Source: an uncultured Candidatus Saccharibacteria bacterium
GTDB taxonomy: Bacteria; Patescibacteriota; Doudnabacteria; UBA920
Length of the DNA stretch: 64,000 bases
Direction: 5' to 3'
NCBI GenBank assembly: GCA_964416765.1
Contig: CAYQEU010000001.1
Location: 549,357-613,356, forward strand
A program made the position numbers and the translations under genes. The notes under the pieces are model-generated. The model made no database searches, had not been told where the DNA came from, and saw nothing but the letters and a program-made list of their open reading frames with translations. Positions 7,600-59,862 of this stretch are shown here, piece after piece; within the stretch, counting starts at the first letter, position 1, and every line of letters starts with the position of its first letter.

Positions 7600-9053
7600 T
7601 AGCGCGGACCTTTCTTGTGCCAATCAGTCACTTGCTGAAAAGCATGGCCAACATTAAACACCTTTTGTTCATCCCATTGCTTGCCCATAACCTGCATTCC
7701 TACCGGTAGGTTTTCGGAAAAACCTGCAGGGACAGAAACAGCTGGCAAACCGGCTAAAGATGAGGGGATGTTTAATTGGTCGGCGATATACCCAAACAAT
7801 GGGTCTGAAGCAGCTTTGCCCAACGGCAAAGCAACGTTAGGAGACGAAGGAGCAACCAAAACATCAACTTTTTTAAATACTTCTTCGAACTCATTCAAAA
7901 TCAAACGACGCACCTTTTGCGCTTTTTTATAGTAAGCATCGTAATAACCTGCGGACAAAACATATGTACCGGTCATAATACGACGTTTAGCCTCATCGCC
8001 GAAACCTTCGGCGCGGCTTTGCTTGTATACATCAAGAAGGCTTTGCGCTTCCTTGCTGGTGTGGCCATACCGAATGCCGTCATAGCGGGCTAAGTTGGAG
8101 CTGATTTCACTCGGGGCAACAATAGCGTAAACCAATGAACCGTATTTTGTGTTAGGCAAACTGACTTTGACCAGCTCGGCTCCCAGCTTCTCCAATTCCT
8201 TAATTCCTTCCATTACCGCTTGCTTAACCCCATCTTCCATACCCTCGACAAAGTACTCATCGGGGATACCTACTTTCAAACCTTTAATATCAGGGCTTAA
8301 ATTAGCAAAATAATTGGGTACATCATGAGGGCCGGTGGTGCCATCTTTAGGGTCTTGTCCCGAGATTACGCTGGCAATCATTGCCAAATCCTCAACTGAA
8401 TGAGCCATAGCCCCGGGGCTATCCAAAGATGAACCCATGGCGATAACACCATATCGACTAACTCGGCCATAGGTTGGTTTCCAACCCGAAACTCCGGTCA
8501 GTGAAGCCGGCTGACGAATACTCCCTCCTGTTTCCGTGGCTAATGCCCAAGGTATTAAACTCCCGGCCACGGCACTTGCCGAACCGCTCGATGAGCCACC
8601 GGGCATGCGTGTGGTGTCCCAAGGGTTTTTGGTGGCGCCAAAAGCGGAAGTTTCCCCAGAAGACCCATGAGCAAATTCATCCAAGTTGGTTTTTCCTAAT
8701 AGCACTGGCTTGTGTTCTTTCAGCTTCTTAATCACCGTGCCATCGTAAGGAGGAATGTAATTATCCAAAATTTTAGACGCGGCTGTGGAACGGATTCCTT
8801 TGGTAACAAATAAATCTTTCGCCGCGTATGGGATGCCGCACAAAACTGGGTTTCCCCCCGCTGATGCTAAATAATCATCAGCGATTTGGGCGTCCTTCAG
8901 CGCTTCTTCTTCCGTCACCGTAATAAACGCGTTTAATTCCGGGTTTTGTTCCTTAATGCGCGCTAAAAAATATTCCGTCAGTTCTTTTGACGAAACTTTT
9001 TTCTCATCCAAATTTTTGCGTAATTCCGCGAGTGTCAGTGTTTCCCAGTTCAT
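7599..9053 (-). CDS. gatA: Glu-tRNA(Gln) amidotransferase subunit A
   Basis: Amidase-signature GGSSSGSASAVA motif; 484 aa. Confidence 0.9.
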   Translation of the reverse strand: MNWETLTLAELRKNLDEKKVSSKELTEYFLARIKEQNPELNAFITVTEEEALKDAQIADDYLASAGGNPVLCGIPYAAKDLFVTKGIRSTAASKILDNYIPPYDGTVIKKLKEHKPVLLGKTNLDEFAHGSSGETSAFGATKNPWDTTRMPGGSSSGSASAVAGSLIPWALATETGGSIRQPASLTGVSGWKPTYGRVSRYGVIAMGSSLDSPGAMAHSVEDLAMIASVISGQDPKDGTTGPHDVPNYFANLSPDIKGLKVGIPDEYFVEGMEDGVKQAVMEGIKELEKLGAELVKVSLPNTKYGSLVYAIVAPSEISSNLARYDGIRYGHTSKEAQSLLDVYKQSRAEGFGDEAKRRIMTGTYVLSAGYYDAYYKKAQKVRRLILNEFEEVFKKVDVLVAPSSPNVALPLGKAASDPLFGYIADQLNIPSSLAGLPAVSVPAGFSENLPVGMQVMGKQWDEQKVFNVGHAFQQVTDWHKKGPR

Positions 9054-11830: not shown

Positions 11831-14383
11831 ATGAACAATTTTACATTTATTTTGGAGCGTTTATCCAGCAGGGCAAAAAACGCTCTTATCGCCGCCCAAT
11901 TAATATCCGAAGAGTTACAGCACGACCATATTGGTACGGAGCATCTTTTGTATGGAATAATCGCTGAAAAGAGCTCTTTTGCAGCTGAAATCTTGATTAA
12001 GGCAAAGGTTACTCCGGATATCGTAAAAACCGAACTAGAAAGCGTCAACAGCAACAACCATGCTGCCGTTTGGAAGCCTATTCTGTCCGAAAACCTTAAG
12101 TTAACTATTGAGAAATCGGCAATTGTGGCCAGCCAATACGGCTACCAATTTATCGGCACCGAGCACTTCCTGTACGGCCTCATTACCACTCCAACCAATA
12201 AAGGCAAAGTAATCTTGTCCCAATTAGGTATTGATATTGCCGAACTGGAACAAAACCTTATAGCGGTATTTGAAAACATTTCCAAATTCCCCGAAATTCC
12301 CAATGACCAGCACAGCCATGGTCCGCAAGGACAAGATCGTTTCGGTGCCGGCCCGCAAAATGTCGACATGAAGAAAGGCAATATGCTGGAATATTTCACC
12401 ACCGACCTAACCAAGAAAGCCGCCGAAGGAAAAGTTGATCCAGTAATCGGGCGCAAGAAGGAAATCGAACGGCTTATTAGCATTCTCGGCCGCCGCACCA
12501 AGAACAACCCAGTCCTCATAGGTGAAGCTGGCGTCGGTAAAACCGCCATTGTCGAAGGTCTGGCTTTAGCTATCGCCCGCCGCGAAGTGCCAGACACTCT
12601 CCTGGACAAGAAAATTTTAAGCTTGGACCTGGCACTTATTGTGGCTGGCTCCATGTTCCGTGGTGAATTCGAAAACCGCCTAAAGCAAATTATCGACGAG
12701 GTAAAAGCCAACCCCGACATTATTCTCTTCATTGATGAGCTCCATACCATGGTTGGCGCTGGAGCCACTACCGGGAGTTTGGATGCGGCCAATATTTTGA
12801 AGCCGGCTTTGGCTCGCGGGGAAATGCGCGCGATTGGCGCTACTACCTTGGCGGAGTACAAAAAGCACATAGAACATGACGCAGCCCTGGAACGTCGTTT
12901 CCAACCTATCCTTGTAGAAGAACCTTCCCAGGAAGAATCCATCGAGATTTTGAAAGGCTTGCGGCCTAATTACGAACGCCACCACAACATAGCCATTACG
13001 GACGAAGCCATAAAAGCAGCGGTGGAACTTTCCAGCCGCTACATCCAGGACCATTTCCTCCCTGACAAAGCCGTAGACCTGGTGGATGAAACTGCAGCCT
13101 TCCTTCGCAGCACTCAGGCCGGTTCCAAAGCACTCCGAGCCAAGAAGAAGATTGAACATGACCTACAAGCTTTGGAAGAAGAAAAAACTAAAGCAGTATT
13201 GGCCCAGGACTTCAACACCGCACTTCACCTTCGCTCCCAGGAAGAAAAGTTAATGAAGCAAAAGGAAGAACTCGAAAAGGGCGAGGAAGCCAAAGAATTT
13301 GCCCCTACCCAGTCGATCACTGCACAGGATATTGCCAACACAGTATCGTTAATGACCAAGATTCCCCTGCAGAAACTCTCGCATAATGAAGTCGGCAAAC
13401 TCGTAAATCTCGAAAAAATCCTGAAATCCCACGTAGTTGGGCAGGATGAAGCGATTACGGAAATAGCCAAAACAGTGCGCCGCAGCCGCGCTGGCATCAC
13501 CGACCCTAACCGTCCGATCGGTTCATTCATCTTCCTTGGTCCAACCGGGGTAGGAAAAACAGAAACTGCCAAGGTAATTGCTCGGGAGGTGTTTGGAGAT
13601 TCCGAAGCTCTTATCCGCGTGGATATGTCTGAATTTATGGAACGCCATAATGTTGCCCGCTTAATTGGTGCCCCTGCCGGTTATGTTGGCTACGAAGAAG
13701 GTGGCCGTCTGACCGAAGCAGTACGCCGCCGTCCTTACGCTGTTATACTGTTTGATGAAATTGAAAAAGCCCACCCTGATGTGTTCAACATCCTCCTCCA
13801 AATTCTGGAAGATGGCCACTTAACTGACGCTTCGGGAAAAAAGGTTAACTTTGCCAATACTGTAATTATCATGACTTCAAACATCGGCATGAGGGAACTC
13901 ACTGTCCAGGCCGCCAAAATCGGTTTCGCCGATAAAGAAGAAAAAGATGAAGAGAAGTTAAACCTGCAAAAGCAATACGAACAGATCAAAGAAAACGTAA
14001 CCGAAAGCCTCAAGCATGAACTCCGACCGGAGCTGCTGAACCGTATCGATAAAATCCTGGTGTTCCAGCCGCTTGGCTTTGACCAACTCAAAAAGATTTC
14101 TGCTATCCAAATTTCCGAGCTGGCTGCCCGCATGGCAAAGCAAAACATCGAACTCAAAGCCGGTCCGACAGTGGCGAAATTTATTGCCGAACGAAGCTTT
14201 GACAAAGCCCAGGGTGCGCGTTTCATCCGCAAGAACATCCAGGACCTAATCAGTGATCCTTTGGCGGAGATGGTTATCAGCCAAGACCTAAAGCAAGGCG
14301 CCACGGTAAAAGTTGAAGTAAGAAAAAACAACTTGCATCTGGACATTCAGTTGAAAAAGTCTAAGGTTGCGGTTCCTGCCTAA
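11831..14383 (+). CDS. clpC: ATP-dependent Clp protease ATP-binding subunit, ClpC/ClpB-type Hsp100
   Basis: Clp N-domain repeats, two AAA+ modules (GEAGVGKT and GPTGVGKTE Walker A motifs), short middle linker, 850 aa. Confidence 0.85.
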   Translation: MNNFTFILERLSSRAKNALIAAQLISEELQHDHIGTEHLLYGIIAEKSSFAAEILIKAKVTPDIVKTELESVNSNNHAAVWKPILSENLKLTIEKSAIVASQYGYQFIGTEHFLYGLITTPTNKGKVILSQLGIDIAELEQNLIAVFENISKFPEIPNDQHSHGPQGQDRFGAGPQNVDMKKGNMLEYFTTDLTKKAAEGKVDPVIGRKKEIERLISILGRRTKNNPVLIGEAGVGKTAIVEGLALAIARREVPDTLLDKKILSLDLALIVAGSMFRGEFENRLKQIIDEVKANPDIILFIDELHTMVGAGATTGSLDAANILKPALARGEMRAIGATTLAEYKKHIEHDAALERRFQPILVEEPSQEESIEILKGLRPNYERHHNIAITDEAIKAAVELSSRYIQDHFLPDKAVDLVDETAAFLRSTQAGSKALRAKKKIEHDLQALEEEKTKAVLAQDFNTALHLRSQEEKLMKQKEELEKGEEAKEFAPTQSITAQDIANTVSLMTKIPLQKLSHNEVGKLVNLEKILKSHVVGQDEAITEIAKTVRRSRAGITDPNRPIGSFIFLGPTGVGKTETAKVIAREVFGDSEALIRVDMSEFMERHNVARLIGAPAGYVGYEEGGRLTEAVRRRPYAVILFDEIEKAHPDVFNILLQILEDGHLTDASGKKVNFANTVIIMTSNIGMRELTVQAAKIGFADKEEKDEEKLNLQKQYEQIKENVTESLKHELRPELLNRIDKILVFQPLGFDQLKKISAIQISELAARMAKQNIELKAGPTVAKFIAERSFDKAQGARFIRKNIQDLISDPLAEMVISQDLKQGATVKVEVRKNNLHLDIQLKKSKVAVPA

Positions 14384-23639: not shown

Positions 23640-24277
23640 TATTTTTTATTTCTTCTTATAAACATTATAACAAATACCGCCACAATAGCTACCGCCAACA
23701 TGACAAACACCAGGATCAAAATATTGAATAGCCTGATAGCCGGATCACCTGAGGCATTTGTGTTATTAGCATTCTGGTTGGTTGGGCTGTTGCCGTTGCT
23801 TACTGTCCCGCCGCAATCCATGGGACAGTTATTCTTGTTTTCCCCGGCCTGGGTTTGGCACGACTTATCGTCGTTGCAAATAGCCGTTTTGCTTACCGAC
23901 ACCACCAGCATCGGTTGGTTATCAACGTTGCTTTTATAAAAGGCCACGGACTTAGCGTCGCCAAAATACGGGGCTATAATCTCATTGTCCCCTTCCAAAA
24001 GATCAAAGTGAAAATCACCGAGAGTCTGGTTAGAGAGTGAAAACACGCGGCCATAATACAGGCCGGGACCGTCAACAAATTGCTCGGATATGAAATCATA
24101 GGGCAAAACATCCTTCACTATAGGGGTTAGGTTTCCGTTTTCAAAACGTAAATGGAACTTATACTCCATGGGCCCTAAATCATACGATGAGTCGGCGCTG
24201 GATTGGGCACGGGCCTGATTCGCCAAAAACAGAAGCGCAAGTAGGGCAGAAAATAACAATATCGTTGTCTTTTTCAT
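23639..24277 (-). CDS. Secreted Cys-containing protein with C-terminal TM anchor
   Basis: Signal peptide (MKKTTILLFSALLALLFLANQARA), Cys cluster (CNDDKSCQ...CPMDCGG), C-terminal TM followed by RRNKK. Confidence 0.4.
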   Translation of the reverse strand: MKKTTILLFSALLALLFLANQARAQSSADSSYDLGPMEYKFHLRFENGNLTPIVKDVLPYDFISEQFVDGPGLYYGRVFSLSNQTLGDFHFDLLEGDNEIIAPYFGDAKSVAFYKSNVDNQPMLVVSVSKTAICNDDKSCQTQAGENKNNCPMDCGGTVSNGNSPTNQNANNTNASGDPAIRLFNILILVFVMLAVAIVAVFVIMFIRRNKK

Positions 24278-26106
24278 TAGTTACCTCCTCCGCCATTAAA
24301 TTTAATGTAGCAAGCAAAAACGTACTGGGCGTACTTTTGGCCTTCCTCCACGTACTTATTGCACTGTTGGTGCCCGGCATCGGTCCACAGACATTCCCAC
24401 GACTTCACGGGGCTACCATCGCATCCGGTTTCTCCGGAACAGCTGGTATATTTGCCGTCAGCTACACGACAGTAGTCCGGCCCGCGGTTATAACCGGCGG
24501 CGATATTGCGAACCTCAACCCTCGGTTTACCGCAGGATCCGGCGGCAATAGACTGGAAATACTTAAGCGACATGCAAATTTGTTCGGTAGGATGGCTTTT
24601 GCGCCATTCACGGCTGGAATTGTAATCGTTGGAGCACTGCGGCCCGTATGTATTAGCCGCTCCGGTAGTAAATTGCATCAGACCAGCCGCACCTGTGTGT
24701 GATTCGGCATTAGGGTCACCCCCCGATTCTTGAGTCATGATAGCTTTCAAAAACGCTGAAGTATTGGCAACGCCGGGTATAGGTCCGTAGCGTGCCACAG
24801 CGGCGTCTACCTGGCCCGCCCAATTATTGACCGCGGCTATTTTGGACGCGTTAGTGCAATTACCCCCGAGCTTACCCTGACACAAATTTACGTTGCTAAA
24901 CAAACAACTCCCGCCAGGAGGAGTGAACGTACCCACGGTTTCATCACCGGAAACACTCCCCGCGCTTCCTCCAGCGCCACCACCGCCAAAATCCCCACCT
25001 TTTACACCGCCAGGATTGTTAAACGCCGTACAAAATGAGTCACTACTGGTAGTGGCACTGTCTATGACTCCCCCCACGGCACCGCCGAGCGGTCCGCCTA
25101 CCGCGCTTCCTACTGCGGCTGCCGGGTTACAATAGAGGTACAATCCCACAAAAATTGCCAATATCGTGGCTTCTATTACCATGAAATCCATAATAACGAT
25201 CCCAATCTTTTCCCACCACACAAGGCCCTGCATAACAGCCAGTTCTTTTACGAAAGGGATGGAACCCGCCGCCCAATACACATTTACCGCTGCAAGGGGT
25301 ATTACTAACCCTATTGTGGGAATAAGGGTGCCAAATATTAGTGCTCCCAGCAGGAATAAAACGAACACCACTATTTTGGTGACCGCCCTAATGAAATAGT
25401 GCATGGCTTCTTTAGGGTGGCCCTTGGCCAGTTCGATTGTACCGTCTATAGCGTCAGAAATACCCAAGCTTATTGCAATTACAATTAGCTGAGCAAGGAT
25501 TTCAGTAATACCAAAGGTTTCCAAGGCACCTGCTGCACCCAAAGCTTCTACACCTACCTCCAATCCACCCTCAACCACAGCGTCCGCGCCAATTTTCGCA
25601 CCTTGCTTTACAACCTGCTCAGTGCCTTCCTTAACAACATCCTTTGCACCCGTCTTAACCAAATTCTTTGCGCCTTTTTCCACTCCCTCCTTTACGCCTT
25701 CTTTTGCTTCGCCTTTAAAACGCTGGTTCAGGTACCTTTTGATTTCTTCCTTACCCTCTTTCTTGATGTAGTCTTTGGCCTGCTGCTTTAGTTCTTCACG
25801 GTCCATGGTAGGGCTAAACCCTGCTTTGTTAAGCTTACCCAACATACCACCGGTTTTGGAATCGAGCTTCGATAAAAGCTCTTTTCCTTTAGCAGTCACT
25901 TTTTTTCCGGCTTCAGTATTGGCTAAATAATCGGTCCCCTTAGAAAAAGCTTTCTTCTTTGCCTGATTCGCTATTGTGTCCCTAATACCCCCTGATTTCT
26001 TGGATGAACTTGAAGAATCAGAAACACCCTGGCCAGACGCTTGGACGTCTTCACCAGGGTTTATACTGTCAGCGCCCCGCCTGTTTCGAGTGTCATCAAA
26101 CAACAT
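24277..26106 (-). CDS. Polytopic membrane protein with C-terminal lytic transglycosylase (SLT, VirB1/TcpG-like) domain
   Basis: K-rich cytoplasmic N-terminus, 4-5 TM helices, Gly-rich linker, Cys-rich C-terminal domain with the SLT catalytic signature AIMTQESGGDP...GAAGLMQF. Confidence 0.65.
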   Translation of the reverse strand: MLFDDTRNRRGADSINPGEDVQASGQGVSDSSSSSKKSGGIRDTIANQAKKKAFSKGTDYLANTEAGKKVTAKGKELLSKLDSKTGGMLGKLNKAGFSPTMDREELKQQAKDYIKKEGKEEIKRYLNQRFKGEAKEGVKEGVEKGAKNLVKTGAKDVVKEGTEQVVKQGAKIGADAVVEGGLEVGVEALGAAGALETFGITEILAQLIVIAISLGISDAIDGTIELAKGHPKEAMHYFIRAVTKIVVFVLFLLGALIFGTLIPTIGLVIPLAAVNVYWAAGSIPFVKELAVMQGLVWWEKIGIVIMDFMVIEATILAIFVGLYLYCNPAAAVGSAVGGPLGGAVGGVIDSATTSSDSFCTAFNNPGGVKGGDFGGGGAGGSAGSVSGDETVGTFTPPGGSCLFSNVNLCQGKLGGNCTNASKIAAVNNWAGQVDAAVARYGPIPGVANTSAFLKAIMTQESGGDPNAESHTGAAGLMQFTTGAANTYGPQCSNDYNSSREWRKSHPTEQICMSLKYFQSIAAGSCGKPRVEVRNIAAGYNRGPDYCRVADGKYTSCSGETGCDGSPVKSWECLWTDAGHQQCNKYVEEGQKYAQYVFACYIKFNGGGGN

Positions 26107-26118
26107 GAGCGCGAAAGG

Positions 26119-27960
26119 TTAATTTATTTCTTCTTTGCTTTCCTTGATTTCCAGGAGTTGTTTCGGGTCAGTGGTAATAATTTGGTCTTCTACGTAAGAC
26201 CCATAAATTTTGATGGCGGCGTGCTTGAGACCGGCAAAGAAAATCCCTTCGCCCACATCACTTTCAAGCAAAAGATACTTTTCCCCCTCGGTCAGGAAGA
26301 ATGTTTCGGCAATAACATCAATAGCCGCTGGGCTTTGCTTAAGCAACAATTGGATGGAGGAGTTGGTTACAATTGGTTTCCCATAAGGACTGTTCATGAA
26401 ATCGGCAACGTCCTGCGTAATAGTAGTCAGGCCGAGGTAGTACTTGCGGCAGCGCTTGGCAATACCGAACACGAAGCGAGCGGAGTCTTCGTGCTGCATC
26501 ATAATCCAGGCTTCATCCAGCACCAGAATGCGCCTCTTCATTTCACTGCGCACCAAATTCCAGATATGGCCCAAAATGATATACATGGCAATCGGGCGGA
26601 GTTGATCCTCCAAATCACGAATTGAGAATACCAGGAGTTGGTTGCTTAAGGTAACGTTGGTCGGCTGGTTCAGCAATCCGGCAAAGGTACCTTCGGTGAA
26701 TTTAGTAAGGCGTTGGGCCAAGCTTTCGGCGCCAACCATTTCCCCAAGAACCTCGATAAGGTCATTCATTACCGGTGGTTCCACAGTGCGCAGATCGCTG
26801 TTTTCAGTTATATCCTTCTTGGCGTAGGTTTGCCATAAGGCCTTATCCATGAGAGCTTCTTCGGTAGGGTCCATCTTTCCCAAAATCAGACTAAACAAGC
26901 CGAGCAGGTTGATAATTCCACTGCGCAAAATGTCGGCAGTGTCTTCGTCTTCAATTGCAGCCGGGAGGTCGAATGGATTAATACGGAAGTCAGAGTTAAG
27001 AGATATATTAAGGTATGTCCCGCCGACAGCGTCGGACAAATGCTTGTACTCGTTTTCCGGGTCAACAATGATGACTTCAGTGCCCACCATGAGCGACCGA
27101 AGTACTTCGAGCTTAATAGCATACGACTTACCCGCACCGGATTTGGCAAACACGACGAAATTAGCGTTTTCCATTTTGAACCGGTCGAATAAAATTAAAC
27201 TGTTGTTATGCCGGTTAATCCCGTACAAAATGCCGTCATTCCCCGTAAGGTCCGAAGAAACAAACGGGAATGTAGTGGACAGCGGGGAACTGTTAAGGTT
27301 ATTGGCAATATCAAGCTCGTCCAGCCCAAGAGGCAGGGTAGAGTTAAACCCCTCTTCGGTCTGGAACAAAGCGCGTTTGGTAACCACCAGTTTCGCGCCC
27401 AAAGAGCTTTCCAAAATAGTAGAGCTCTTTTCCAGTTCATCTTTGCTGTTGGCGTATATGGTAAAGTAAAGGGCAAACCGGAAATACTTCTCCGTACCCT
27501 GGGATAGATCGTCACGCAATGATTCTACGTCCTGGTAAGCAGTTTGGAGAACCGGATCGCGAACCATCCCCTTTTCTTCATTTATGCTTATTTGCGAGCC
27601 AATTTCCCCCACTTTAGCCTTTAGCTTTTTCAAAATTACAGCCGAATCAATGGGATAAATGAACATGGACACATCCAGCTCACCTTCAGAGTTGATGACA
27701 AAAGACAGCCAGTTAGTTGAAAGCATACGCGGGTATGCCAGCACGAAAAAGGTACGGGCATACTTGTTGTTGAGTTGGAAGTCGTTGCTTTCAAAGTGCA
27801 AAGCCGAAGGAGCGAGCAAATCCTTCATTGTGGTCAGCCCTTCGCGGTAGTTCTTTTCCACCTCAGCAAGACGGGCATTCTCGTCTAAAGTACCCTTAAG
27901 CTTGGCCAGCTCCTGCTTTTTCTTTTCGAGATCAGTTTCGTTTAGTTTAAATAACGCCAT
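26119..27960 (-). CDS. VirB4/TrbE/CagE-family T4SS ATPase (C-terminal ATPase portion)
   Basis: Walker A (VFAKSGAGKSYAI), Walker B (ILVLDEAWIMM) and surrounding blocks typical of VirB4-type ATPases. Confidence 0.75.
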   Translation of the reverse strand: MALFKLNETDLEKKKQELAKLKGTLDENARLAEVEKNYREGLTTMKDLLAPSALHFESNDFQLNNKYARTFFVLAYPRMLSTNWLSFVINSEGELDVSMFIYPIDSAVILKKLKAKVGEIGSQISINEEKGMVRDPVLQTAYQDVESLRDDLSQGTEKYFRFALYFTIYANSKDELEKSSTILESSLGAKLVVTKRALFQTEEGFNSTLPLGLDELDIANNLNSSPLSTTFPFVSSDLTGNDGILYGINRHNNSLILFDRFKMENANFVVFAKSGAGKSYAIKLEVLRSLMVGTEVIIVDPENEYKHLSDAVGGTYLNISLNSDFRINPFDLPAAIEDEDTADILRSGIINLLGLFSLILGKMDPTEEALMDKALWQTYAKKDITENSDLRTVEPPVMNDLIEVLGEMVGAESLAQRLTKFTEGTFAGLLNQPTNVTLSNQLLVFSIRDLEDQLRPIAMYIILGHIWNLVRSEMKRRILVLDEAWIMMQHEDSARFVFGIAKRCRKYYLGLTTITQDVADFMNSPYGKPIVTNSSIQLLLKQSPAAIDVIAETFFLTEGEKYLLLESDVGEGIFFAGLKHAAIKIYGSYVEDQIITTDPKQLLEIKESKEEIN

Positions 27961-28664
27961 TATTTTGTTTCGGGGGTTAGAGTTACGTTGTCCAATTGGC
28001 TTGCGTCAATTAGAGGTGCAGACTCAAAATTATAAGAGTTGTAGATCAATTCGATGATTTGCTCAGTATTTAACTTTACGGCACGCAGCCCCATGGCATT
28101 CAAGTTGCTGACCACGCTGGTTACGCGCTCTTCCAACATGGAGCGATGGTGTTCAAAATTGGCTTCGCGTTTAGTTATGGCTTTGGCCCGGCCGCGCGCA
28201 AATAAGGAAGAAAAGAACCCGCCGCTGTCTGAACCGATACTTTCATTGTAAGGGACGACGCAGTAAAAATTCTTGTTCATGATATTCCCCGTTTCCACCA
28301 GTTGGTTGATGAACTCGATATACTCGCCAGTCTGCATGCGCAGCAACTCATTGGTCTGCTTCTCCATCATGTCCTTCAGTTTTTCGGTATAACTGCCAAT
28401 ATCCATGCGGCGGCTTTGCATGATTATCTGAATGGAAAAATCCAGCGAATTCAAAAACCGCTGGTAGGAAAATATAAGGGCGTCCTGCTCGCTTTGGCTT
28501 TTCAAGTCAAAGTTAGTGGAAGATACCGCCACCACCGCCCGCAGAGTCCCGTCATCCATAATCATGGTATCCTGCTTGATCTCTTTGGTGCGCAGGAAAT
28601 TCTGGGTGGGATTTATCGATTTATGATGTTTGTTTTGTTTTTTCTCCATCGACAATGTGTTCAA
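27960..28664 (-). CDS. VirB4 N-terminal-domain-like protein (split VirB4, translationally coupled to the ATPase)
   Basis: Pattern MIMDDGTLRAVVAVSSTNFDLKSQSEQDALIFSYQRFLNSLDFSIQIIMQSRRMDI resembles the conserved VirB4/TrbE N-terminal block. Stop/start overlap at 27960. Confidence 0.45.
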   Translation of the reverse strand: MNTLSMEKKQNKHHKSINPTQNFLRTKEIKQDTMIMDDGTLRAVVAVSSTNFDLKSQSEQDALIFSYQRFLNSLDFSIQIIMQSRRMDIGSYTEKLKDMMEKQTNELLRMQTGEYIEFINQLVETGNIMNKNFYCVVPYNESIGSDSGGFFSSLFARGRAKAITKREANFEHHRSMLEERVTSVVSNLNAMGLRAVKLNTEQIIELIYNSYNFESAPLIDASQLDNVTLTPETK

Positions 28665-29082
28665 TGAGCGAATGCTCTTCCGATGCTTGCTGCTGCAAGA
28701 GATAATTCATTTCTTTAATGCGCACCAGTGCGTTGCCTTGCGCCTTTTCCGGTGCTTCTTCCGTGATGGTCGCCTTCCCCTGGCTTTCTACCAAGCTTTT
28801 CCCTTGTTTATGGAAGACAAAATGCTTTGGCTCAAAACTGGAGCCGGCTAAGGCAAACATGGAATTATACAACGGCCTGCCATTTACCTTGATAAAGACA
28901 ATGGCCAAGGCAGGAATTCCGATAAAAACCAACACGAATATTAGTAAAAGTACGCTGTGGCTAAGGTTCCAAGTCAAAAAGGCCAGGACCCCCACACCGA
29001 ATAAAATCCCGAACTGTTTAAAGCCCAAACCCGCTACGAGTTTGTCTTCGATATCGGTAAATTGAGGGACGTTATATTGCAT
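28621..29082 (-). CDS. VirB3/PrgI-like small two-TM protein
   Basis: 153 aa, two adjacent TM helices near the N-terminus, immediately upstream of VirB4 as in monoderm T4SS operons. Confidence 0.4.
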   Translation of the reverse strand: MQYNVPQFTDIEDKLVAGLGFKQFGILFGVGVLAFLTWNLSHSVLLLIFVLVFIGIPALAIVFIKVNGRPLYNSMFALAGSSFEPKHFVFHKQGKSLVESQGKATITEEAPEKAQGNALVRIKEMNYLLQQQASEEHSLIEHIVDGEKTKQTS

Positions 29083-29109
29083 ATTGGCCCCTTAATTATA
29101 CCATATGAA

Positions 29110-29898
29110 CTAGCTAAATTGAATTGATTTTAGCAAATCAGAGAAGGCTTCAAATTCGGCTTTAGACATCAAGCTTTTGCCTTCCCACTGTTCAGGAAAA
29201 GCCCCCGCGGGGCTGCTTAAAGCAGCGCGGCCGGTATCCAGGTATGTCTGGTATAAGAGGCTCTTCTCTAAATAAAACAGAACTTCAAAGTAATTAGAAG
29301 CCGCAACAAGTTTTTTGAGCGCAGGGATAAGTCCCCCGTCCATAGTCCTCATGCTTCCTAAGGTTAGCAGAGAGGCGTCTTTAGGCTGGTCCAACTCCTT
29401 GGGGCCTGGTGGCTCCGGTTTTACGGGTTTGGACGCGGCTTTCGGGTAAGAAACCGGCGGCTTAACTGCTCCCGCCGAAGTGACGGTTCTTTTGCCGTCG
29501 GTTAGCCGGCCTTCGGGTCTCGTGCCGGTTAATTCCTTCTCCTCCATAGCCTGACGCAAATTTGCTTCCCATTGCTTTAACGTGCCGCGCTTGCGGGACG
29601 TTGGCAAAGGAAACTTCGGCAAGTTTGAAATGTGGCTTAGGGGCATTTTCTGGGGCTGGGATGGAGTTGCGACTACGGGCGGTGTTGCCTTGGCGGGAGT
29701 AGTAGCTGGCGTGGTGGCAGGCGCTCCGGGTTTAGCAGCCGCTGATGGGCCAGGACCTTCCAAAATCGCCTGCAACTCTGAAGCCTGCTTGTCATTCATT
29801 ACAATAAGCATATCCAACCATTCCGCCTTTTCCGCGTCGCTGAGCATGGTGGAGGAATGAATCATCTGCTTAAGTTTTTCCATTTGCTGTGATTGCAT
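29110..29898 (-). CDS. Hypothetical cytoplasmic protein with Pro/Ala/Thr-rich linker
   Basis: No TM and no recognisable domain; in an operon with T4SS-like genes. Confidence 0.35.
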   Translation of the reverse strand: MQSQQMEKLKQMIHSSTMLSDAEKAEWLDMLIVMNDKQASELQAILEGPGPSAAAKPGAPATTPATTPAKATPPVVATPSQPQKMPLSHISNLPKFPLPTSRKRGTLKQWEANLRQAMEEKELTGTRPEGRLTDGKRTVTSAGAVKPPVSYPKAASKPVKPEPPGPKELDQPKDASLLTLGSMRTMDGGLIPALKKLVAASNYFEVLFYLEKSLLYQTYLDTGRAALSSPAGAFPEQWEGKSLMSKAEFEAFSDLLKSIQFS

Positions 29899-29899
29899 G

Positions 29900-31333
29900 C
29901 TAGCTTTGCTTTCTGCTTCTTAATTCGTCCAGTTTTTTGGCGATATCATCCGCGCTAGGGCCCGTTTTTATTTCCGCTGGCGCCACGGGGAGCTGGGAAG
30001 GAACTGCAAGAGCCGCCGCTTTCGAAGGCTCATTCGCTATGGGTTTTACTGCCGGTTTGTCTGCTTCTTTGTCCGCCGGTTTTCGTGATGGTGTTTCGAT
30101 CTTTGGCGCTGGGTCGAACACAATTCCTCCTCGCCCCTTTGTGCGCTGGTTCAAGAAGTCTTGGATGTTCATGGGCGGATTGGCAGTCCGGATATTCATC
30201 TCCTTGAGTTTTGCCTTAATCTCTTCATCTACTTCACTGGATTTGGGTGGTACCACTGGAGCAGGCTTGTCCTCAACTATGTAGCTTTCGGCCGGAAGCT
30301 TGGGCTTGGGTGCTGCGGGTACGAATTTGGCCGCCGGTGCCGGCTTAGGCATGGATGCCTCCACGGGTTTAGGTGGCTGGATAGGAGCTGGCTGGGGTTT
30401 TACTGCCGCAGAAGCCGGTTTGACGACGGCTGTAGGTTTAACCAATTCGGAATTGGTCACCGGTGTTGGTACACTAATCTCATACTTTTCCTCGGACGCA
30501 GGCTGAATGGGAATGTCTTCTTCGATAGGCGGAGCTATTTCAAAATGGGGTTTCAGCAACCAACGATAAAAATCAATTAATTTCAAAAATAGTTTTTTCT
30601 CTTCGGCGTTTAAGGTTTGGACGTTTTTGGACGTAGAAACGTATTTGGCTTCGTCATATGCGTCACGGCCGCTATTTACTGAAGTTAAATAGGGGCGGGC
30701 GTCTTCCAGCCAGTTCTTAATGTAAGGCAATCGCTGCCCATCAATACTGGTCAATTTGGTTGACCCTAGAATCTCTTCGTTTTGGTCCAGCGCCTGGATA
30801 AATTTTTGGGTCCAGGTTAAGTCAAAATTGGCCTGTTCAATAAGGAAGCGACGTTCAAAGCTGGCCAGCAGGTTCAGTCGGGGCAAAAAATAGAGGATGT
30901 CATTGCGCAGGATATCAGCCCATTCCTCGTCGGACAGGTCGTCAAAAACGCCAACTTCAAAAATATTAATAGCGTCAATAAGGTCTTGTCCTACCTGAAT
31001 GTCTTTGCTGTTAATCCACCCTGGCAAATCGCGCATTAAACCGATAGCATACGTGCCAAAATTAAAATCAGCGTCGTCAATGACTGTCTTCAGAAACTCT
31101 GGAACTCCACGGATATCACCGTCGTGGGCCTTTTTACCGAGGTCAGCCAGCTTTAATATGACATTAACCAAAGAATCCTTTATCAGTTCAAAATCGCTGC
31201 TGTTTATGACCTTCCAGATAAGATCCTGGGAATGCTCTCCCAAATTAGGGATTGCAGCAAGGACTGACTGCTTTTGCGCGTCAGTCCAGTTTGATTGGCT
31301 GATTAATTGTGTAAATTCTTCTATTGAAGCCAT
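29900..31333 (-). CDS. Hypothetical protein with long Pro/Lys/Ala-rich C-terminal region
   Basis: No TM and no NTPase motifs; in an operon with T4SS-like genes. Confidence 0.35.
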   Translation of the reverse strand: MASIEEFTQLISQSNWTDAQKQSVLAAIPNLGEHSQDLIWKVINSSDFELIKDSLVNVILKLADLGKKAHDGDIRGVPEFLKTVIDDADFNFGTYAIGLMRDLPGWINSKDIQVGQDLIDAINIFEVGVFDDLSDEEWADILRNDILYFLPRLNLLASFERRFLIEQANFDLTWTQKFIQALDQNEEILGSTKLTSIDGQRLPYIKNWLEDARPYLTSVNSGRDAYDEAKYVSTSKNVQTLNAEEKKLFLKLIDFYRWLLKPHFEIAPPIEEDIPIQPASEEKYEISVPTPVTNSELVKPTAVVKPASAAVKPQPAPIQPPKPVEASMPKPAPAAKFVPAAPKPKLPAESYIVEDKPAPVVPPKSSEVDEEIKAKLKEMNIRTANPPMNIQDFLNQRTKGRGGIVFDPAPKIETPSRKPADKEADKPAVKPIANEPSKAAALAVPSQLPVAPAEIKTGPSADDIAKKLDELRSRKQS

Positions 31334-31341
31334 CGATTATA

Positions 31342-34300
31342 CTAGAATGTTTTTCTATATCTTGGTTCTTTCCTCTCAAAATCGCTGCTAGGAACAATCT
31401 TCGGCTCGTCATCGTTGACTGACGCAGGATTAGGGTTGGCGTTCGGGGTGAAAGTTTGCCCTGCCGGAGCCGGAGTGCTTGGAGCAGCTTGTCCTTGTAG
31501 ATAATTCTTCCTGAATAATGCGATTTTATCGGCGGCTCTGGCCAAAGAATCGGCTTCGGTCATGTTTGGGTTCTGTTCTCTAAATGCTTTGGCCACCTTT
31601 TCGACAGCTTTAGGATCTTCACTCAAGGCTCCTTCATATTTAATTTTCTGGGCCTTGTTAACACGCGTAGCATTTTTATAATTAGTCTCATCCGCATCTA
31701 CTATAAAATGTGCGGCTCCTCCACTCATGATATACCTGTTTTGGCTGTCTTTCTCCGCAATCGCAGAATGGTGGCCATTTCGTGCAATGTCTTGAGGTTC
31801 CCATTTTCTACGCTGGGCAGTTTGATACTCATACATATCTTTCATGTCTTTGGCGCTTTCAGTGTCTCTAATTTTCAAGTTTCCACTTTTGTCACGATAA
31901 GTAAGCCCCATCAACGCCTGGTTTCGTTTGGAAAAGCCTACGCCATTTATAGATTCCAAAACGCGTGCGGCATAGTCTTCGCTAAAAATACCATGCTCAA
32001 CCTGAGCTTTCATAAAGTTAAGGATATCCTTGGATAATTCACCAGTTTTTTCGAAATGATTGTTCGCATCTTCTGAATAACGATCCATTGCGGTATTTAA
32101 GCCATTGGCTTGGGCCAAGGCTAACAAGCTTCCCGCTTGTTGAGTCATACGAGTATTGCCGCTACCTTGGTGCATACCATGAAGCAATTCCTGCACTTGG
32201 TATTCTTCATCCTTGTCTTTCATGTGGTCAGCGTGATGCGCCGCTTCGTGGTCGAGCGTGCTAAAGTACTCATCAGAAACAGGACCGCCACCCAAAAGTG
32301 TTCGTCCTCTGACTTTAATACCTTTGCGGAAAGTATCAAAGGCTTGTCCCTTAACCTGCTTCTCCTGCGCTTCCTTCTTTTCCGTATCCTGCGCTTTATA
32401 ACCTTCGTATTGACGCTTGGGCGTAAGGGCCATACCCAAAGCTTTCAAAGCGCCACCCTGCAGGCCACCCTTTCCTTCTCCTCTTTCAATTAACCTCATA
32501 GCCTGATCAGTCTTGTATCTATTGGCCCTATCAGCAGCAGCCGCACCCCCAGCCTTAGCCGCTTTCCCATACCATTCAAATGGCTTGCGCATTCCCTTTT
32601 CCGCAAAGTTGGCTACTGCTTGCCCACCGTACGTACCGGAACTGGAAGCTGCCTTAAGGCCAACCAAGATAAACAAGATAGTTAAAATTTGACTGCCAGC
32701 GAGGTAAACAAACTGTGAAATTTCCCCGCTAACTTTTTGACTGGCCAACAATTGGGAAAAAGTCCCCTGGTCACGCAGCATGGTGGTCACAAAAACCGCG
32801 GACAGGTTCAGGAAGAATGCCAAAACCGGGGTCATGAAAGCATACTTCAAAAAGTGCGTCCACCAACTTCTGGTGTAGCTGGCTGTTTGGGGCAGGACAT
32901 TCGCCACATAAGCTAGTGGCGATACTAGTAGTAATATCCAAAGGGCCACTATTCGAATTACCAGGAAAGCAGCCAAAGCCAGGAAAGTAAAGAACGCGCC
33001 CAACGCCAATGCCAAGGCGAATATAGGCTTCGTTAGGTTGGCAAACGAGGCGCCGGCCGTGGTAGCGTTGCCGGTGCTGAAGTTACTGGAGTCGGTGAGT
33101 TTGTTGATCGGCTCAACCATCAACTTGCTGCCCAAAGCGCGAATTACATTGGTGCTATCGGGCAGAAACTGTTGTTGCACGGTATCGGCAACGCCCAATA
33201 CGGCCTGGCCAAACACAAGACTAAAGTTAACCAACAAAGCCGCTATAACTACCTTAACCAGCAAGTGCTTATAGTTGTAGCTTTCCAACCGGAATAATGT
33301 ACCCAACCCAATAACCAGCAATATAACAATAAAGAAAATGTTGCAGAGGTTGCGGATGAGCTGCCACCCCAGGTAAATGGCTTCTACGAACACGTCCTGG
33401 TAAGGGTGAACCTGGAGGAGAGACTCAATTAACGGCGCTACCACGTTTGAAAACGCCCAATAAATAATTCTTACATGGGCGAGGATGTAATAAGTTAAAA
33501 TCCTATTTAAAATATCCGCGAGAGTTGAACCGGTACCCCCTAGCGTGCCACTTCCTCCGGTATTGTCAGTAGTGTCTGGCGGTTTATCTTTATCGGCTAA
33601 GTAAGCTGCTTTACCCGCATCAGTATTTGCGTAAACTTTAACATTGATTTTCCTGACAAGATCGGAAGAAACATACGCCGCTTCGGTGCTGCCCGGCAAA
33701 AGCCAATTGGAATAACCGACATATGGAAAAACGTAAAGAGTGTTGATCTGTCCTGTGTCAGAGGCTTTGTTAATTCCATAGGATTCACGGGTGGCTTTAT
33801 CTAAAACAATGTCTGTGGATGCTGGTTCATTCGCGTTTATTGTAAGATATACCGGAAATATTGCGTTGCTGGTTATAAGATATGGGGCAGCTAACTTTTG
33901 GGAACAGCTTCTAACATTAGTGCTAAAGACGACTCCCCCCGAACACAATGTCGCAGGGTCGGCGTTGGTGTATATTAGTCCGAATCCCACAATTTGCCTC
34001 GCGCTCGGCATGACCTTGTCGACATATAAATTGTCCCATCCCACACCCCCTGCGTTGTAGCCGCTTATATAAAGCTTGTCCGGCTTAACCATGGACAGAC
34101 TGGCTGTAATCTTAATAGGGCCGCTCCCCGTACCGGCTGCATCAACCGGACCATCCTTATCAACCAATACACGGAAAAAATCCCCGGGTTTAAACGGATC
34201 AATTTTTACGCCTATATCATCAACACCAAAGTTTCGCTGTGAAAGGTCGGCTTTTGCCGGATTTGAATTCGCAAAAAACACAGTAATTGCAAGCACAAAT

Positions 34301-34353
34301 ACTGTGGTAAACCCTAGGAAGATAGATTTTAGTTTTGGTTTCTTGAAAGTCAC
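31342..34353 (-). CDS. VirB6/TrbL-like polytopic membrane protein with large N-terminal ectodomain and ~470-aa C-terminal cytoplasmic extension
   Basis: GTG start, signal/anchor, ~300-aa ectodomain, then 6+ hydrophobic helices (e.g. IFALALALGAFFTFLALAAFLVIRIVALWILLLVSPLAYV), then a long charged tail containing HEAAHHADH. Confidence 0.5.
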   Translation of the reverse strand: MTFKKPKLKSIFLGFTTVFVLAITVFFANSNPAKADLSQRNFGVDDIGVKIDPFKPGDFFRVLVDKDGPVDAAGTGSGPIKITASLSMVKPDKLYISGYNAGGVGWDNLYVDKVMPSARQIVGFGLIYTNADPATLCSGGVVFSTNVRSCSQKLAAPYLITSNAIFPVYLTINANEPASTDIVLDKATRESYGINKASDTGQINTLYVFPYVGYSNWLLPGSTEAAYVSSDLVRKINVKVYANTDAGKAAYLADKDKPPDTTDNTGGSGTLGGTGSTLADILNRILTYYILAHVRIIYWAFSNVVAPLIESLLQVHPYQDVFVEAIYLGWQLIRNLCNIFFIVILLVIGLGTLFRLESYNYKHLLVKVVIAALLVNFSLVFGQAVLGVADTVQQQFLPDSTNVIRALGSKLMVEPINKLTDSSNFSTGNATTAGASFANLTKPIFALALALGAFFTFLALAAFLVIRIVALWILLLVSPLAYVANVLPQTASYTRSWWTHFLKYAFMTPVLAFFLNLSAVFVTTMLRDQGTFSQLLASQKVSGEISQFVYLAGSQILTILFILVGLKAASSSGTYGGQAVANFAEKGMRKPFEWYGKAAKAGGAAAADRANRYKTDQAMRLIERGEGKGGLQGGALKALGMALTPKRQYEGYKAQDTEKKEAQEKQVKGQAFDTFRKGIKVRGRTLLGGGPVSDEYFSTLDHEAAHHADHMKDKDEEYQVQELLHGMHQGSGNTRMTQQAGSLLALAQANGLNTAMDRYSEDANNHFEKTGELSKDILNFMKAQVEHGIFSEDYAARVLESINGVGFSKRNQALMGLTYRDKSGNLKIRDTESAKDMKDMYEYQTAQRRKWEPQDIARNGHHSAIAEKDSQNRYIMSGGAAHFIVDADETNYKNATRVNKAQKIKYEGALSEDPKAVEKVAKAFREQNPNMTEADSLARAADKIALFRKNYLQGQAAPSTPAPAGQTFTPNANPNPASVNDDEPKIVPSSDFERKEPRYRKTF

Positions 34354-56018: not shown

Positions 56019-56447
56019 ATGGCGCTAATCGCAAAGAACAAACGAGCCACATTTGATTACGACATCAAGGATACTTTTGATGCCGGTTTAGTATTGTCCG
56101 GTGCCGAAGTGAAATCCGCCAAAGCCGGCAACCTGTCCATGACAGGCAGCTACGTGACCGTCGCGCAAAACGGCGCCAACCTCGTGGCCCTGCACATTGG
56201 CCCTTATCCCTACGCCCCCAATGAGGGCTACAACCCCACCCGTACCCGGCAGCTGCTCCTCAACAAATCCGAACTAAACTCGCTAATAGGCAAAGAGAAA
56301 GGGTTGGCTATCATTCCATTGGAAATATTCCACAACAACCGCGGCCTGGTCAAAGTCAAAATCGGACTGGGTCGGCCGCGCAAAAAAGAAGACAAACGCG
56401 ACTACCTCAAGAAGCGCGAAGATATCCGCGAAATCCGAGAAACCTAA
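56019..56447 (+). CDS. smpB: SsrA-binding protein
   Basis: 142 aa with a canonical SmpB sequence (ATFDYDIKDTFDAGLVLSGAEVKS...GLGRPRKKEDKRD). Extended -10 TGTTAAAAT lies 6 nt upstream of the ATG. Confidence 0.9.
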   Translation: MALIAKNKRATFDYDIKDTFDAGLVLSGAEVKSAKAGNLSMTGSYVTVAQNGANLVALHIGPYPYAPNEGYNPTRTRQLLLNKSELNSLIGKEKGLAIIPLEIFHNNRGLVKVKIGLGRPRKKEDKRDYLKKREDIREIRET

Positions 56448-58471: not shown

Positions 58472-58500
58472 TTGACAAAATGCCCAAAAAGGTGTATAAT
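58472..58500 (+). promoter_or_regulatory. Consensus sigma-70 promoter TTGACA-N17-TATAAT driving tmRNA
   Basis: -35 TTGACA 58472..58477; 17-nt spacer; -10 TATAAT 58495..58500. The mature tmRNA 5' end is 10 nt downstream. Confidence 0.75.
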
Positions 58501-58510
58501 ATGTATTCAT

Positions 58511-58902
58511 GGGGATGCCGGATTTTGACAAGACGGAAACCTCAATTGATATGCAAGACGAGCAAGCATTCTAACTCGCAAATCTGGTATGCAACAATAA
58601 ATGCTAACGCATTTTCTAAGGTAAAGGAAGCTATGGCTTTGGCCTTCGCTCCTGTACCTGTACTCGCCTAACATAACTGGCTAGTACCCTGGCCCTCAGG
58701 TCTCCCTGCTTGAGGACCACCAGGTTCATTTTGGGATATAGCTTTATGGTTTGATTTACGCCGTAAAGTGGAACATTGGTAAATCAACTTTTGTTCTTAG
58801 CTGTCCACCGCTTGGGCAAAAGTACTTTGATGGACTAATCTTGTGACCAATCAGTTTGGGAATTTGTTTTGGACGCGAGTTTAACTCTCGCCATCTCCAC
58901 CA
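58511..58902 (+). ncRNA. ssrA: tmRNA (SsrA), ~392 nt including encoded CCA
   Basis: 5' GGGGATGCCGGATTTTGACAAGACGG and 3' GGACGCGAGTTTAACTCTCGCCATCTCCACCA closely match the E. coli tmRNA termini. Acceptor pairing GGGGATG/CATCTCC, T-arm GCGAG-TTTAACT-CTCGC. UCGCAAA resume-codon context, as in E. coli. Confidence 0.85.
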
Positions 58903-58992
58903 AAATAGGTTTGCCTAGCCCGCAGGGCGCAGGCAAAGCGAGATTTTGGTAGGATGCTGAGCCGAAGGCGAAGCGCCACCAAATAATTTTTA

Positions 58993-59018
58993 AACCGCGT
59001 TTCAGCGGTTTTGTTATA
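58993..59018 (+). terminator. Intrinsic terminator downstream of tmRNA
   Basis: AACCGC-GTTTCA-GCGGTT followed by TTGTTATATT. Confidence 0.45.
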
Positions 59019-59028
59019 TTATAACTAC

Positions 59029-59457
59029 ATGACACTTTCTCCTTTAACCAAACAGGCCATTACACACACCTTACACTGTCTTCTTGGGTGTTCCATTGGA
59101 GAGGTGGGCGGCATGGCAATAGGCACGGCATTCCACTGGCACAATATCACCATGACAATTGTGTCCATTGCGCTCTCCTTTGTTTTCGGGTATTTACTTA
59201 CCACTCTTTCCCTGGTTAAGAAAGGCTCCCAGATAAAGCAGGCTGTGAAAGCCGCCGTCGCTACCGATACCGTGTCAATCATCTCCATGGAATTGATTGA
59301 CAATGTTTTTGTTTGGTTAATACCTGGGGCATTGGATGCCACATTAAACCAACCATTGTTTTGGCTGAGCCTCTTAGCCTCTTTAGTGGTTGCTTTCTCT
59401 TTGACTGTTCCCGTGAACCGTTGGTTCATAGCCGAAAAGGGTCATTCGCACCACTAG
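59029..59457 (+). CDS. DUF4396 domain membrane protein
   Basis: HCLLGCSIGEV motif and 4 TM helices. ATG at 59029 preferred because the track start at 59011 is TTG inside the terminator. Confidence 0.55.
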   Translation: MTLSPLTKQAITHTLHCLLGCSIGEVGGMAIGTAFHWHNITMTIVSIALSFVFGYLLTTLSLVKKGSQIKQAVKAAVATDTVSIISMELIDNVFVWLIPGALDATLNQPLFWLSLLASLVVAFSLTVPVNRWFIAEKGHSHH

Positions 59458-59511
59458 CCCTCTCTCCAATCCCCGGACACGCAAGCGTTGGGGCATGTTA
59501 TAATTATTTCT

Positions 59512-59862
59512 ATGAATAACTTACAAGATGTATTTAGCAGAATCCGCGAAACGCGGGTCAAAGCAAAACAGATTCGCGCCATGTATAAAGACTCCCTGGC
59601 GCAACACCCCGAGTACAAAACCATAGTGGAAAAAATAGACGCTCTGAAAGAGCAGAAGAAGCAGATTGAAACCCAGGTTAAAGACGACCAGCTGGCGGAA
59701 TTCCAGAAGCTAGATGCATACAAAATGCACGTTAAGAATGATTTAGAGATGCTGTCGGACTTGGCTTTAAATCAGTTAGTTTCGGGCGAGACCGTGGAGG
59801 TTGTTGACGAAGACAATAACAAATACGAACCTTTGTTCACGGTTAAGTTTAAGAAAGCATAA
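59512..59862 (+). CDS. Hypothetical coiled-coil protein
   Basis: ATG at 59512 (MNNLQDVF...) is preceded by TATAAT-TATTTCT, so it is probably leaderless. The track start at 59488 is TTG. Confidence 0.4.
   Translation: MNNLQDVFSRIRETRVKAKQIRAMYKDSLAQHPEYKTIVEKIDALKEQKKQIETQVKDDQLAEFQKLDAYKMHVKNDLEMLSDLALNQLVSGETVEVVDEDNNKYEPLFTVKFKKA

Follow-up and report, generated by a model that had tools for sequence, protein, structure and literature searches.

A 64,000-nucleotide stretch of contig CAYQEU010000001.1 from an uncultured Candidatus Saccharibacteria bacterium (called the window throughout, in its whole length) contains, at 58511..58902 on the forward strand, what is with high confidence a genuine, complete and functional gene (ssrA) for one-piece transfer-messenger RNA (tmRNA). 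As predicted by comparison with its relatives, this RNA would encode a tag of 22 codons starting at GCU 58603, and the elbow of its tRNA-like domain (TLD) would be held by an A12:U372 pair. All defining features of one-piece tmRNAs that we examined by sequence are present, except the sequence consensus of the D-loop (GG) and of the T-loop (UUC). It belongs to a known RNA family, in which it is ordinary apart from a structural variant of modest interest.

Identity and fold of the gene

The Rfam covariance model for tmRNA (RF00023) matches 58511..58902 (+) over model positions 1-374 of 374, scoring 120.4 bits where the gathering score is 47 (E = 1.7e-46). The covariance-model check proposed together with the original prediction of a tmRNA gene here therefore returned a full-length match above threshold. 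The interval originally proposed, 58472..58902, runs from the -35 hexamer of the promoter through the encoded CCA. The gene is the sole tmRNA in the window, and because three separate assemblies (L007, L009 and L098) carry the same gene, it is not an assembly artefact.

Relatives were gathered through SmpB homologues and their contigs, and through a metagenome scan whose pattern was limited to the acceptor stem (GGGGATGNCGG...CCATCTCCACCA); after filtering, the scan yielded 80 true tmRNAs, 75 of them unique. The SmpB search of genome contigs gave six loci, two of which (L002 and L003) were useful. The structure alignment comprised 31 unique members of the window's clade, and columns at the resume codon were compared across 33 clade sequences.

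Folding the 31 aligned members with RNAalifold, followed by a second pass on the unpaired columns (a two-layer fold), recovered the acceptor stem, helix 2, pseudoknot 1 (PK1), helix 5, PK2, PK3, PK4 and the T-arm, with many compensatory changes (Table 1). The original prediction also called for a pseudoknot-rich body between the termini, and all four pseudoknots were found. Stem 1 of PK1 is paired in 124 of 124 cells and covaries, for instance as UGAG/CUCA in L024, CGGG/CCCG in L064 and CGAAG/CUUCG in L059. Five of the ten pairs of helix 5 have changed on both sides, with L011 compensating as GUUC/GAAC. The stems of PK2-PK4 contain 4-9 pairs each, and in these as in the variable helices generally most pairs have changed on both sides. 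The T-arm stem is paired in 100% of cells, and all seven of the seven acceptor pairs (GGGGAUG with CAUCUCC) are formed, with a G:U at pair 3, followed by ACCA. This G3:U is the alanine identity pair of the acceptor stem.

The resemblance to E. coli SsrA extends over the acceptor stem with G3:U and ACCA, the stemless D-loop, the T-arm, helix 2, PK1, PK2-PK4, the single-stranded resume region with U(-5) and A(-4), a tag that starts with 'AN', a stop codon in the helix-5 loop, the smpB partner, and a precursor whose 5' leader is short and whose 3' trailer is structured (PMC3968760). The two RNAs differ in length (392 nt here, 363 nt in E. coli), in the D-loop, which is here 1 nt shorter between G7 and GG, in the elbow pair (A:U here, G14:C343 in E. 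coli), and in the tag, which has 22 codons rather than 10, ends in VLA rather than LAA, and has a conserved amphipathic internal motif in place of the SspB-binding AANDENY of E. coli.

Table 1. Features of the tmRNA gene and of other genes in the window, with window coordinates
Feature	Positions	Strand	Description and basis
Sigma-70-type promoter	58472..58500	+	TTGACA 58472-58477, 17-nt spacer, TATAAT 58495-58500; 12/12 consensus positions
Mature tmRNA (ssrA)	58511..58902	+	392 nt, standard one-piece form, encoded CCA end; RF00023, RNAalifold (31 clade members)
5' half of tRNA-like domain	58511..58529	+	Acceptor strand GGGGAUG and stemless D-loop CCGGAUUUUGAC
Acceptor stem	58511-58517 with 58892-58898	+	RNAalifold
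Helix 2	58529-58558 with 58839-58871	+	Three segments, closes the pseudoknot ring; RNAalifold
PK1	58559..58592	+	Stem 1 58559-58562 with 58575-58578; stem 2 58566-58568 with 58590-58592
Tag reading frame	58603..58671	+	Resume codon GCU 58603-58605; 22 codons, predicted tag ANAFSKVKEAMALAFAPVPVLA; stop UAA 58669-58671
Helix 5	58660-58669 with 58678-58687	+	GUACUCGCC / GGCUAGUAC; stop codon at start of loop
PK2	58688-58736	+	Both stems found, two-layer RNAalifold
PK3	58741-58787	+	Both stems found, two-layer RNAalifold
PK4	58788-58835	+	Both stems found, two-layer RNAalifold
T-arm	58875-58879 with 58887-58891	+	GCGAG UUUAACU CUCGC; then 3' acceptor strand CAUCUCC and ACCA, to 58902
3' trailer	58903..59016	+	Hairpins 58908-58939 and 58940-58990; terminator stem-loop 58992-59011, then U run
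smpB	56019..56447	+	142 aa, C-terminal tail present; Pfam PF01668, 140.4 bits, profile positions 1-138/143
Clp/Hsp100 ATPase, ClpC-like AAA+	11831..14383	+	850 aa, short middle domain; IGF tripeptide at residues 697-699 (ClpP-docking loop position)
Type IV secretion-like cluster	24277..34353	-	SLT transglycosylase 24277-26106; VirB4/TraG-like ATPase 26119-27960; 1003-aa TrbL/VirB6-like protein 31342-34353

The elbow pair of the tRNA-like domain

The T-arm has the expected 5-bp stem and 7-nt loop, with a loop that reads UUUAACU, not UUCRANY, and the D-loop has GA, not GG. In the Rfam alignment G11 and A12 lie beneath the consensus GG and position 372 beneath the T-loop UUC, making A58522 (tmRNA position 12) the equivalent of tRNA G19 and U58882 (position 372) the equivalent of tRNA C56. 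We take positions 12 and 372 to be G14 and C343 in E. coli tmRNA numbering. For that RNA the helix 12 numbering is given in PMC1168896, and in tRNA G19:C56 is the Watson-Crick pair of the elbow (anatomy in PMC7912444). As in tRNA, the tmRNA pair would join the second G position of the D-loop to the third nucleotide of the T-loop, with Watson-Crick geometry according to the covariation; the tRNA pair is almost invariably G:C, whereas here the tmRNA alone has switched.

Counted across the 75 unique tmRNAs and, separately, across 48 distinct TLD sequences, the elbow is G:C in 37 (30 distinct TLDs), A:U in 30 (13 distinct TLDs) and U:A in 3 (2 distinct TLDs); the other 5 tmRNAs have U or A facing C, and the other 3 distinct TLDs are unpaired here. 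A neighbour-joining tree made without the two elbow columns, which is rough and has long deep branches, placed one large A:U clade, including the window, within G:C lineages. U:A arises twice inside this clade (L027 with L097, and L045), and two more A:U sequences (L059 and L129) lie among G:C relatives. The distribution suggests about five independent double switches of the pair. All four tRNAs found in 362 kb of A:U-class loci keep GG and UUC, which argues that the switch is specific to the tmRNA.

In an alternative register of the D-loop, which we consider unlikely, G10 and G11 would serve as G18 and G19, so that the T-loop U would pair as a G.U wobble and leave A12 unpaired. GG is invariant at positions 10-11 (a feature that the scan pattern itself demanded), and the five sequences with U or A at position 12 and C56 seem to need such a shift. 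However, positions 12 and 56 change together through G:C, A:U and U:A, with no G:U pair and no one-sided change among the 48 distinct TLDs, and shifting the partner column destroys the signal. In the alternative register the U:A class (CGGU with UUA) would moreover form a G.A mismatch, and A12 falls beneath E. coli G14, which corresponds to tRNA G19, by the Rfam alignment and also by the spacing from the conserved GAC. We therefore read the elbow as probably held by an A12:U372 Watson-Crick pair, and the swap as neutral and structure-preserving because A:U keeps the pair geometry.

The five exceptional sequences (L033, L044, L087, L094 and L079) form one clade, keep GG at 10-11 and have a D-loop 1-2 nt longer, which suggests either a register shift with the GG at 10-11 taking over or else loss of the elbow pair. 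Two further sequences have C at T-loop position 2, the conserved U55 site (UCUAACU in L078 and UCCAACU in L074); occurring in one sequence each, these may be sequencing errors or rare variants.

Resume codon, tag and detection by ARAGORN

GCU 58603 lies 10 nt 3' of PK1 and is preceded by AAUAAAU, which places U at -5 and A at -4; the clade consensus 5' of the resume codon is A(-6) U/C(-5) A(-4) A A U. In characterised tmRNAs the tag starts about 10-12 nt past PK1 (PMC2481249, PMC3929946), A86 (-4) is the dominant and nearly invariant determinant of the frame, and U85 (-5) is protected by SmpB and can be replaced by C or G but not by A, with U85A impairing frame choice in E. coli (PMC2481249). 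Because the spacing from PK1 and the U(-5) and A(-4) fit these published rules, we assign GCU 58603 as the resume codon. Among the 33 clade sequences the corresponding column holds a G-initial codon in all 33 and GCN in 27, and the open reading frames (ORFs) that start there run for 17-25 codons, all ending in a hydrophobic residue plus Ala.

Selection on the encoded peptide points to the same frame. Between eight distinct 22-codon tags, nucleotide differences at codon positions 1, 2 and 3 numbered 81, 106 and 237, and synonymous and non-synonymous codon differences numbered 152 and 133 in the tag frame, compared with 46 and 261 or 38 and 281 in the two shifted frames. This excess of synonymous differences confirms the frame as one under coding selection. 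Given one altered base, a tRNA-like domain made canonical, or thresholds set to 97% of the default, ARAGORN reports the same 22-codon tag. The original prediction had described the tag as ambiguous between two frames; both frames do exist, but only the one from GCU 58603 is conserved, and the ambiguity is not real. By these comparisons the predicted tag is unambiguous: ANAFSKVKEAMALAFAPVPVLA, preceded by the Ala carried on the tmRNA. It ends in PVPVLA, and its stop, UAA 58669..58671, sits in the helix-5 loop.

The original prediction had allowed this frame a tag of 22-26 residues ending in FAPVPVLA at the same stop, and of that range the 22-codon form holds. The 26-codon form, ATINANAFSKVKEAMALAFAPVPVLA, would start four codons earlier at GCA 58591, in frame and with no intervening stop, and GCA occupies that column in 17 of the 33 relatives. 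We consider it very unlikely nevertheless: GCA 58591 lies within PK1 stem 2 (58590-58592 paired with 58566-58568), it has G at both -4 and -5 where A(-4) is key, and it starts 0 nt past PK1 instead of the usual 10-12 nt. In the other 16 relatives the column reads GGC, ACA, AAA, AAU, AGC or GUA, and the four extra codons are not conserved as protein.

Compared with E. coli, the 22-codon tag is unusually long, as the original prediction had remarked; within the sampled group almost all tags have 17-27 codons, which is the norm there. The tags share the motif AN-(A/T/L)-F-(S/A)-(K/R)-(V/A)-K-x-A-(L/F/M)-A-x-A-F-A ... P-x-(L/V/F)-A, which persists even where SmpB identity falls to about 50%, as in L003, whose tag is ANTLARVKSTLASAFRSLATVPALA. 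Judged from these sequences, the long tag is a trait of the clade and not a peculiarity of this gene. Documented tags span 8-35 residues, with 10 the commonest length (PMC3968760, PMC11915505). The hydrophobic VLA at the C-terminus is a typical ssrA-type degron end, and the conserved amphipathic N-terminal part, NAFSKVKEAMALAF, is probably a second recognition surface for an adaptor or protease.

For tag length the closest analogue appears to be Mycoplasma, where a 27-residue tag is read by Lon in a genome without ClpXP (PMC8403727). Both Mycoplasma/Mesoplasma and the present lineage are genome-reduced and have tags more than twice the usual length with a hydrophobic ...FA or ...LA end; many clade members here end in AFA, resembling the ...YAFA of Mycoplasma. 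The tag sequences are dissimilar, however, and whereas ClpXP is absent there, the genes of the window include one for a ClpC-like ATPase that has an IGF loop (Table 1) and falls short of the NCBIfam cut-off for ClpB as well as that for ClpA. Because of the IGF loop we would expect a ClpP partner elsewhere in the genome, and ClpP is probably present. On the 64 kb of the window, a switch to Lon is not indicated.

RNAalifold also predicted an extra helix within the tag frame, 58619..58627 paired with 58651..58659 (+) (AGGUAAAGG / CCUGUACCU), in which the K-V-K codons face the P-V-P codons. Pairing occurs in 82% of cells, and five of the seven pairs have changed on both sides; this signal may be genuine or may result from constraints on the coding sequence.

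With default settings, ARAGORN did not call the gene in either the whole window or the sub-region. The miss is a marginal one, by less than 3% of the threshold, since the gene is called when the thresholds are set to 97% of the default. Detection was restored by 34 of the 1,176 possible single substitutions; replacing A12 by G (58522) and replacing U372 by C (58882) are the only two of these within the tRNA-like domain. Another restoring substitution, C58579 to U, removes a decoy GCA in PK1. The A12:U372 swap together with this decoy would push the gene just below the ARAGORN threshold. At default settings ARAGORN missed 8 of the 30 A:U tmRNAs and 4 of the 37 G:C tmRNAs.

Several points weigh against the view of the gene set out here. 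The support for it is entirely sequence-based, with expression, RNA ends, aminoacylation and tagged peptides inferred. The tag frame is open upstream of 58603, with no stop back to 58480, so stop codons cannot exclude a longer tag, and it is the PK1 pairing and the -4/-5 rule that do so. The hit obtained from ARAGORN at reduced thresholds is labelled 'tmRNAp' and has a low score. The relatives share ancestry, such that shuffle statistics overstate their independence, and with 5 of 75 tmRNAs, from one clade, combining U or A at position 12 with C56, pairing of 12 with 56 is not universal.

That the gene might be a decaying or non-functional copy, rejected by ARAGORN or labelled 'tmRNAp' because it has lost the conserved T-loop C56, is barely credible. 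Its T-loop does read UUUAACU instead of UUCAACU, and ARAGORN made no default call and gave the 'tmRNAp' label at lowered thresholds. Yet A12 in the D-loop makes up for the T-loop change, and the A:U state recurs in 30 unique tmRNAs, drawn from many samples, whose architecture is intact and whose tag is under purifying selection. The gene is also the only tmRNA in the window, with a perfect promoter and an intact smpB nearby.

The PK1 decoy is also the start of the other tag that had been proposed, ANLVCNNKC, read from GCA 58578 with UCGCAAA as its resume context. The chance that this is the tag is negligible. The ORF is real (stop 58605-58607) and has A at -4, and the rescue of the ARAGORN call by C58579 to U, which loses GCA 58578, indicates that the software may be distracted by it. 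UCGCAAA, however, belongs to PK1, where it makes up the loop and the 3' strand of stem 1; it lines up with CCUCGUAAA in the Rfam consensus, and the stem strand covaries with the 5' strand opposite. In addition, GCA 58578 has A at -5, the equivalent of the impairing U85A in E. coli (PMC2481249), its column reads GUA in 24 of 33 relatives and GCA in 2, ORFs from this column have incoherent lengths and ends (RIF, NIC, PNF), and the C-terminus of ANLVCNNKC is not a hydrophobic residue plus Ala.

Flanking DNA, lineage and significance

The promoter upstream of the tmRNA, which the original prediction had called textbook, matches the sigma-70 consensus at every position and is the sole perfect match on either strand of the window, where 0.05 would be expected by chance. 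Transcription would start at about 58506-58508, leaving a leader of 3-5 nt for removal by RNase P. Five relatives (L011, L014, L016, L017 and L056) have TTGACA-N17-TATAAT about 70 nt further upstream of G1, corresponding to a leader of about 70 nt, whereas in the window, L007 and L098 the promoter is only 10 nt from G1. Because relatives carry the same promoter farther upstream, we consider it conserved, with the window's lineage having a very short leader.

The 3' trailer has a fold energy of -46.7 kcal/mol (z = -3.85), and its terminator was identified by a terminator scan. L016 and L056 have the hairpins too, with compensatory changes, and L007 and L009 have them in part; the hairpins are absent from L098, whose tmRNA is nearly identical to that of the window, and are therefore dispensable. 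A permissive Rfam search of the trailer matched no family. An invariant core of the trailer, AUUUUGGUAGGAUGC (UUUGGUAGGAUGC), is complementary to the tmRNA 3' end CCACCAAAAU and resembles the tmRNA 5' strand, with a predicted duplex between AUUUUGGUAGG and the CCACCAAAAU end. A role of the trailer in 3' processing is possible on this basis, and the trailer itself would be removed by such processing.

The trailer ends in a second CCACCAAAU. We considered whether this could be the duplicated att site of a genomic island and rejected the idea, as the interval is about 85 nt and contains no gene, and the repeat lies within a conserved hairpin. In L102 and L110 a second copy of the tmRNA 3' end, CCGCCATCTCCACCA, occurs about 100-130 nt downstream of the gene and looks like an att-type direct repeat from integration at ssrA. 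The DNA 3' of the tmRNA (59011..59862, compared with L007 8885..9023) varies among genomes with 99% identical SmpB: the window and L098 have a DUF4396 gene and a 124-aa ORF before a large FN3 surface protein, whereas L007 and L009 continue directly to the FN3 protein. This variation fits a rearrangement hot spot in the tmRNA 3' flank.

Three mechanically called ORFs overlap the tmRNA: 58480..58671 (+, 63 aa), 58507..58674 (-, 55 aa) and 58835..59035 (-, 66 aa). The first, a spurious ORF, extends from the promoter spacer across the tag frame; an annotation that missed the tmRNA could list it as a hypothetical protein.

The smpB gene, as the original prediction had correctly placed it, lies 2.06 kb upstream of the tmRNA, and its product, the protein that tmRNA requires as a partner, passes the thresholds of the two NCBIfam SmpB equivalogs. 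Relatives keep the same succession of smpB, a PLD-like gene, two small ORFs, a minus-strand ORF and the tmRNA. No tmRNA was found within 6 kb of smpB in L018-L021, whose SmpB is 69-74% identical, and the synteny is accordingly confined to the closest group. L001, the closest relative among genome contigs, has no tmRNA on its 8.9-kb contig.

The GC content of 46-53% and the presence of a type IV secretion-like cluster are compatible with Patescibacteria (the candidate phyla radiation, CPR). The VirB4-like protein of this cluster, between whose genes lie several ORFs without a Pfam match, has homologues 78-81% identical in records named Candidatus Doudnabacteria or Patescibacteria group, these being record names and not a phylogeny. 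SmpB sequences from records labelled uncultured Gammaproteobacteria (L002 and L003) and Candidatus Limnocylindria (P0061) group with this clade, and L002 and L003 also carry its type of tmRNA; the taxonomic labels look unreliable, and Candidatus Limnocylindria is at odds with the GC content and the gene content. L003 further contains, at 7632..7760 (+), an Rfam tRNA match of 47.6 bits that has a 62-nt insertion in the anticodon-loop region and is not called by ARAGORN.

By analogy with characterised tmRNAs, the gene would be transcribed from the sigma-70 promoter to the terminator near 59011 and the transcript trimmed to 392 nt and charged with alanine through the G3:U pair. SmpB, encoded 2 kb upstream, would bind, and the tmRNA would enter stalled ribosomes. 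Translation would resume at GCU 58603, add A and ANAFSKVKEAMALAFAPVPVLA, and terminate at UAA 58669..58671 in the helix-5 loop.

A curated tmRNA database (Williams laboratory, 2025) holds 5,275 tmRNAs from 6,765 Patescibacteria genomes, a recovery of 0.78 per genome compared with 0.96 in Pseudomonadota (PMC11915505). Its Patescibacteria entries come from the same phylum as the present gene and very probably already include tmRNAs of the same general kind. The text of that article and the supplements examined, which give no tag sequences, contain no mention of the tag motif or the 19:56 swap. Our literature search returned no paper on Patescibacteria tmRNA tags or on the swap.

For annotation, the gene is a functional-looking tmRNA below the default threshold of ARAGORN, the finder used in many pipelines. 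Such misses may contribute to the lower recovery of tmRNAs in Patescibacteria, and where the tmRNA is missed, the spurious 63-aa ORF may be annotated instead. The fixed tag, (A)ANAFSKVKEAMALAFAPVPVLA, is a candidate peptide to seek in proteomics and degradation studies of CPR bacteria. The elbow covariation adds comparative evidence on structure that is small in scale but clean, and it leaves the understanding of how tmRNA works unchanged.

A broader reading, to which we give somewhat less than an even chance, is that a large clade of Patescibacteria has replaced the near-universal G19:C56 equivalent by A:U in its tmRNA alone and not in its tRNAs, has gone further to U:A at least twice, and is the same clade that carries the amphipathic tag of about 22 residues. 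If this is true, the elbow swap would mark the lineage and make its tmRNAs harder to detect for pipelines built on ARAGORN, and the tag motif would suggest an adaptor or a protease specific to the clade as recognition partner. Should neither feature have been described before, the swap would provide a natural, three-state covariation proof of the Watson-Crick pair between the D-loop and T-loop of tmRNA.

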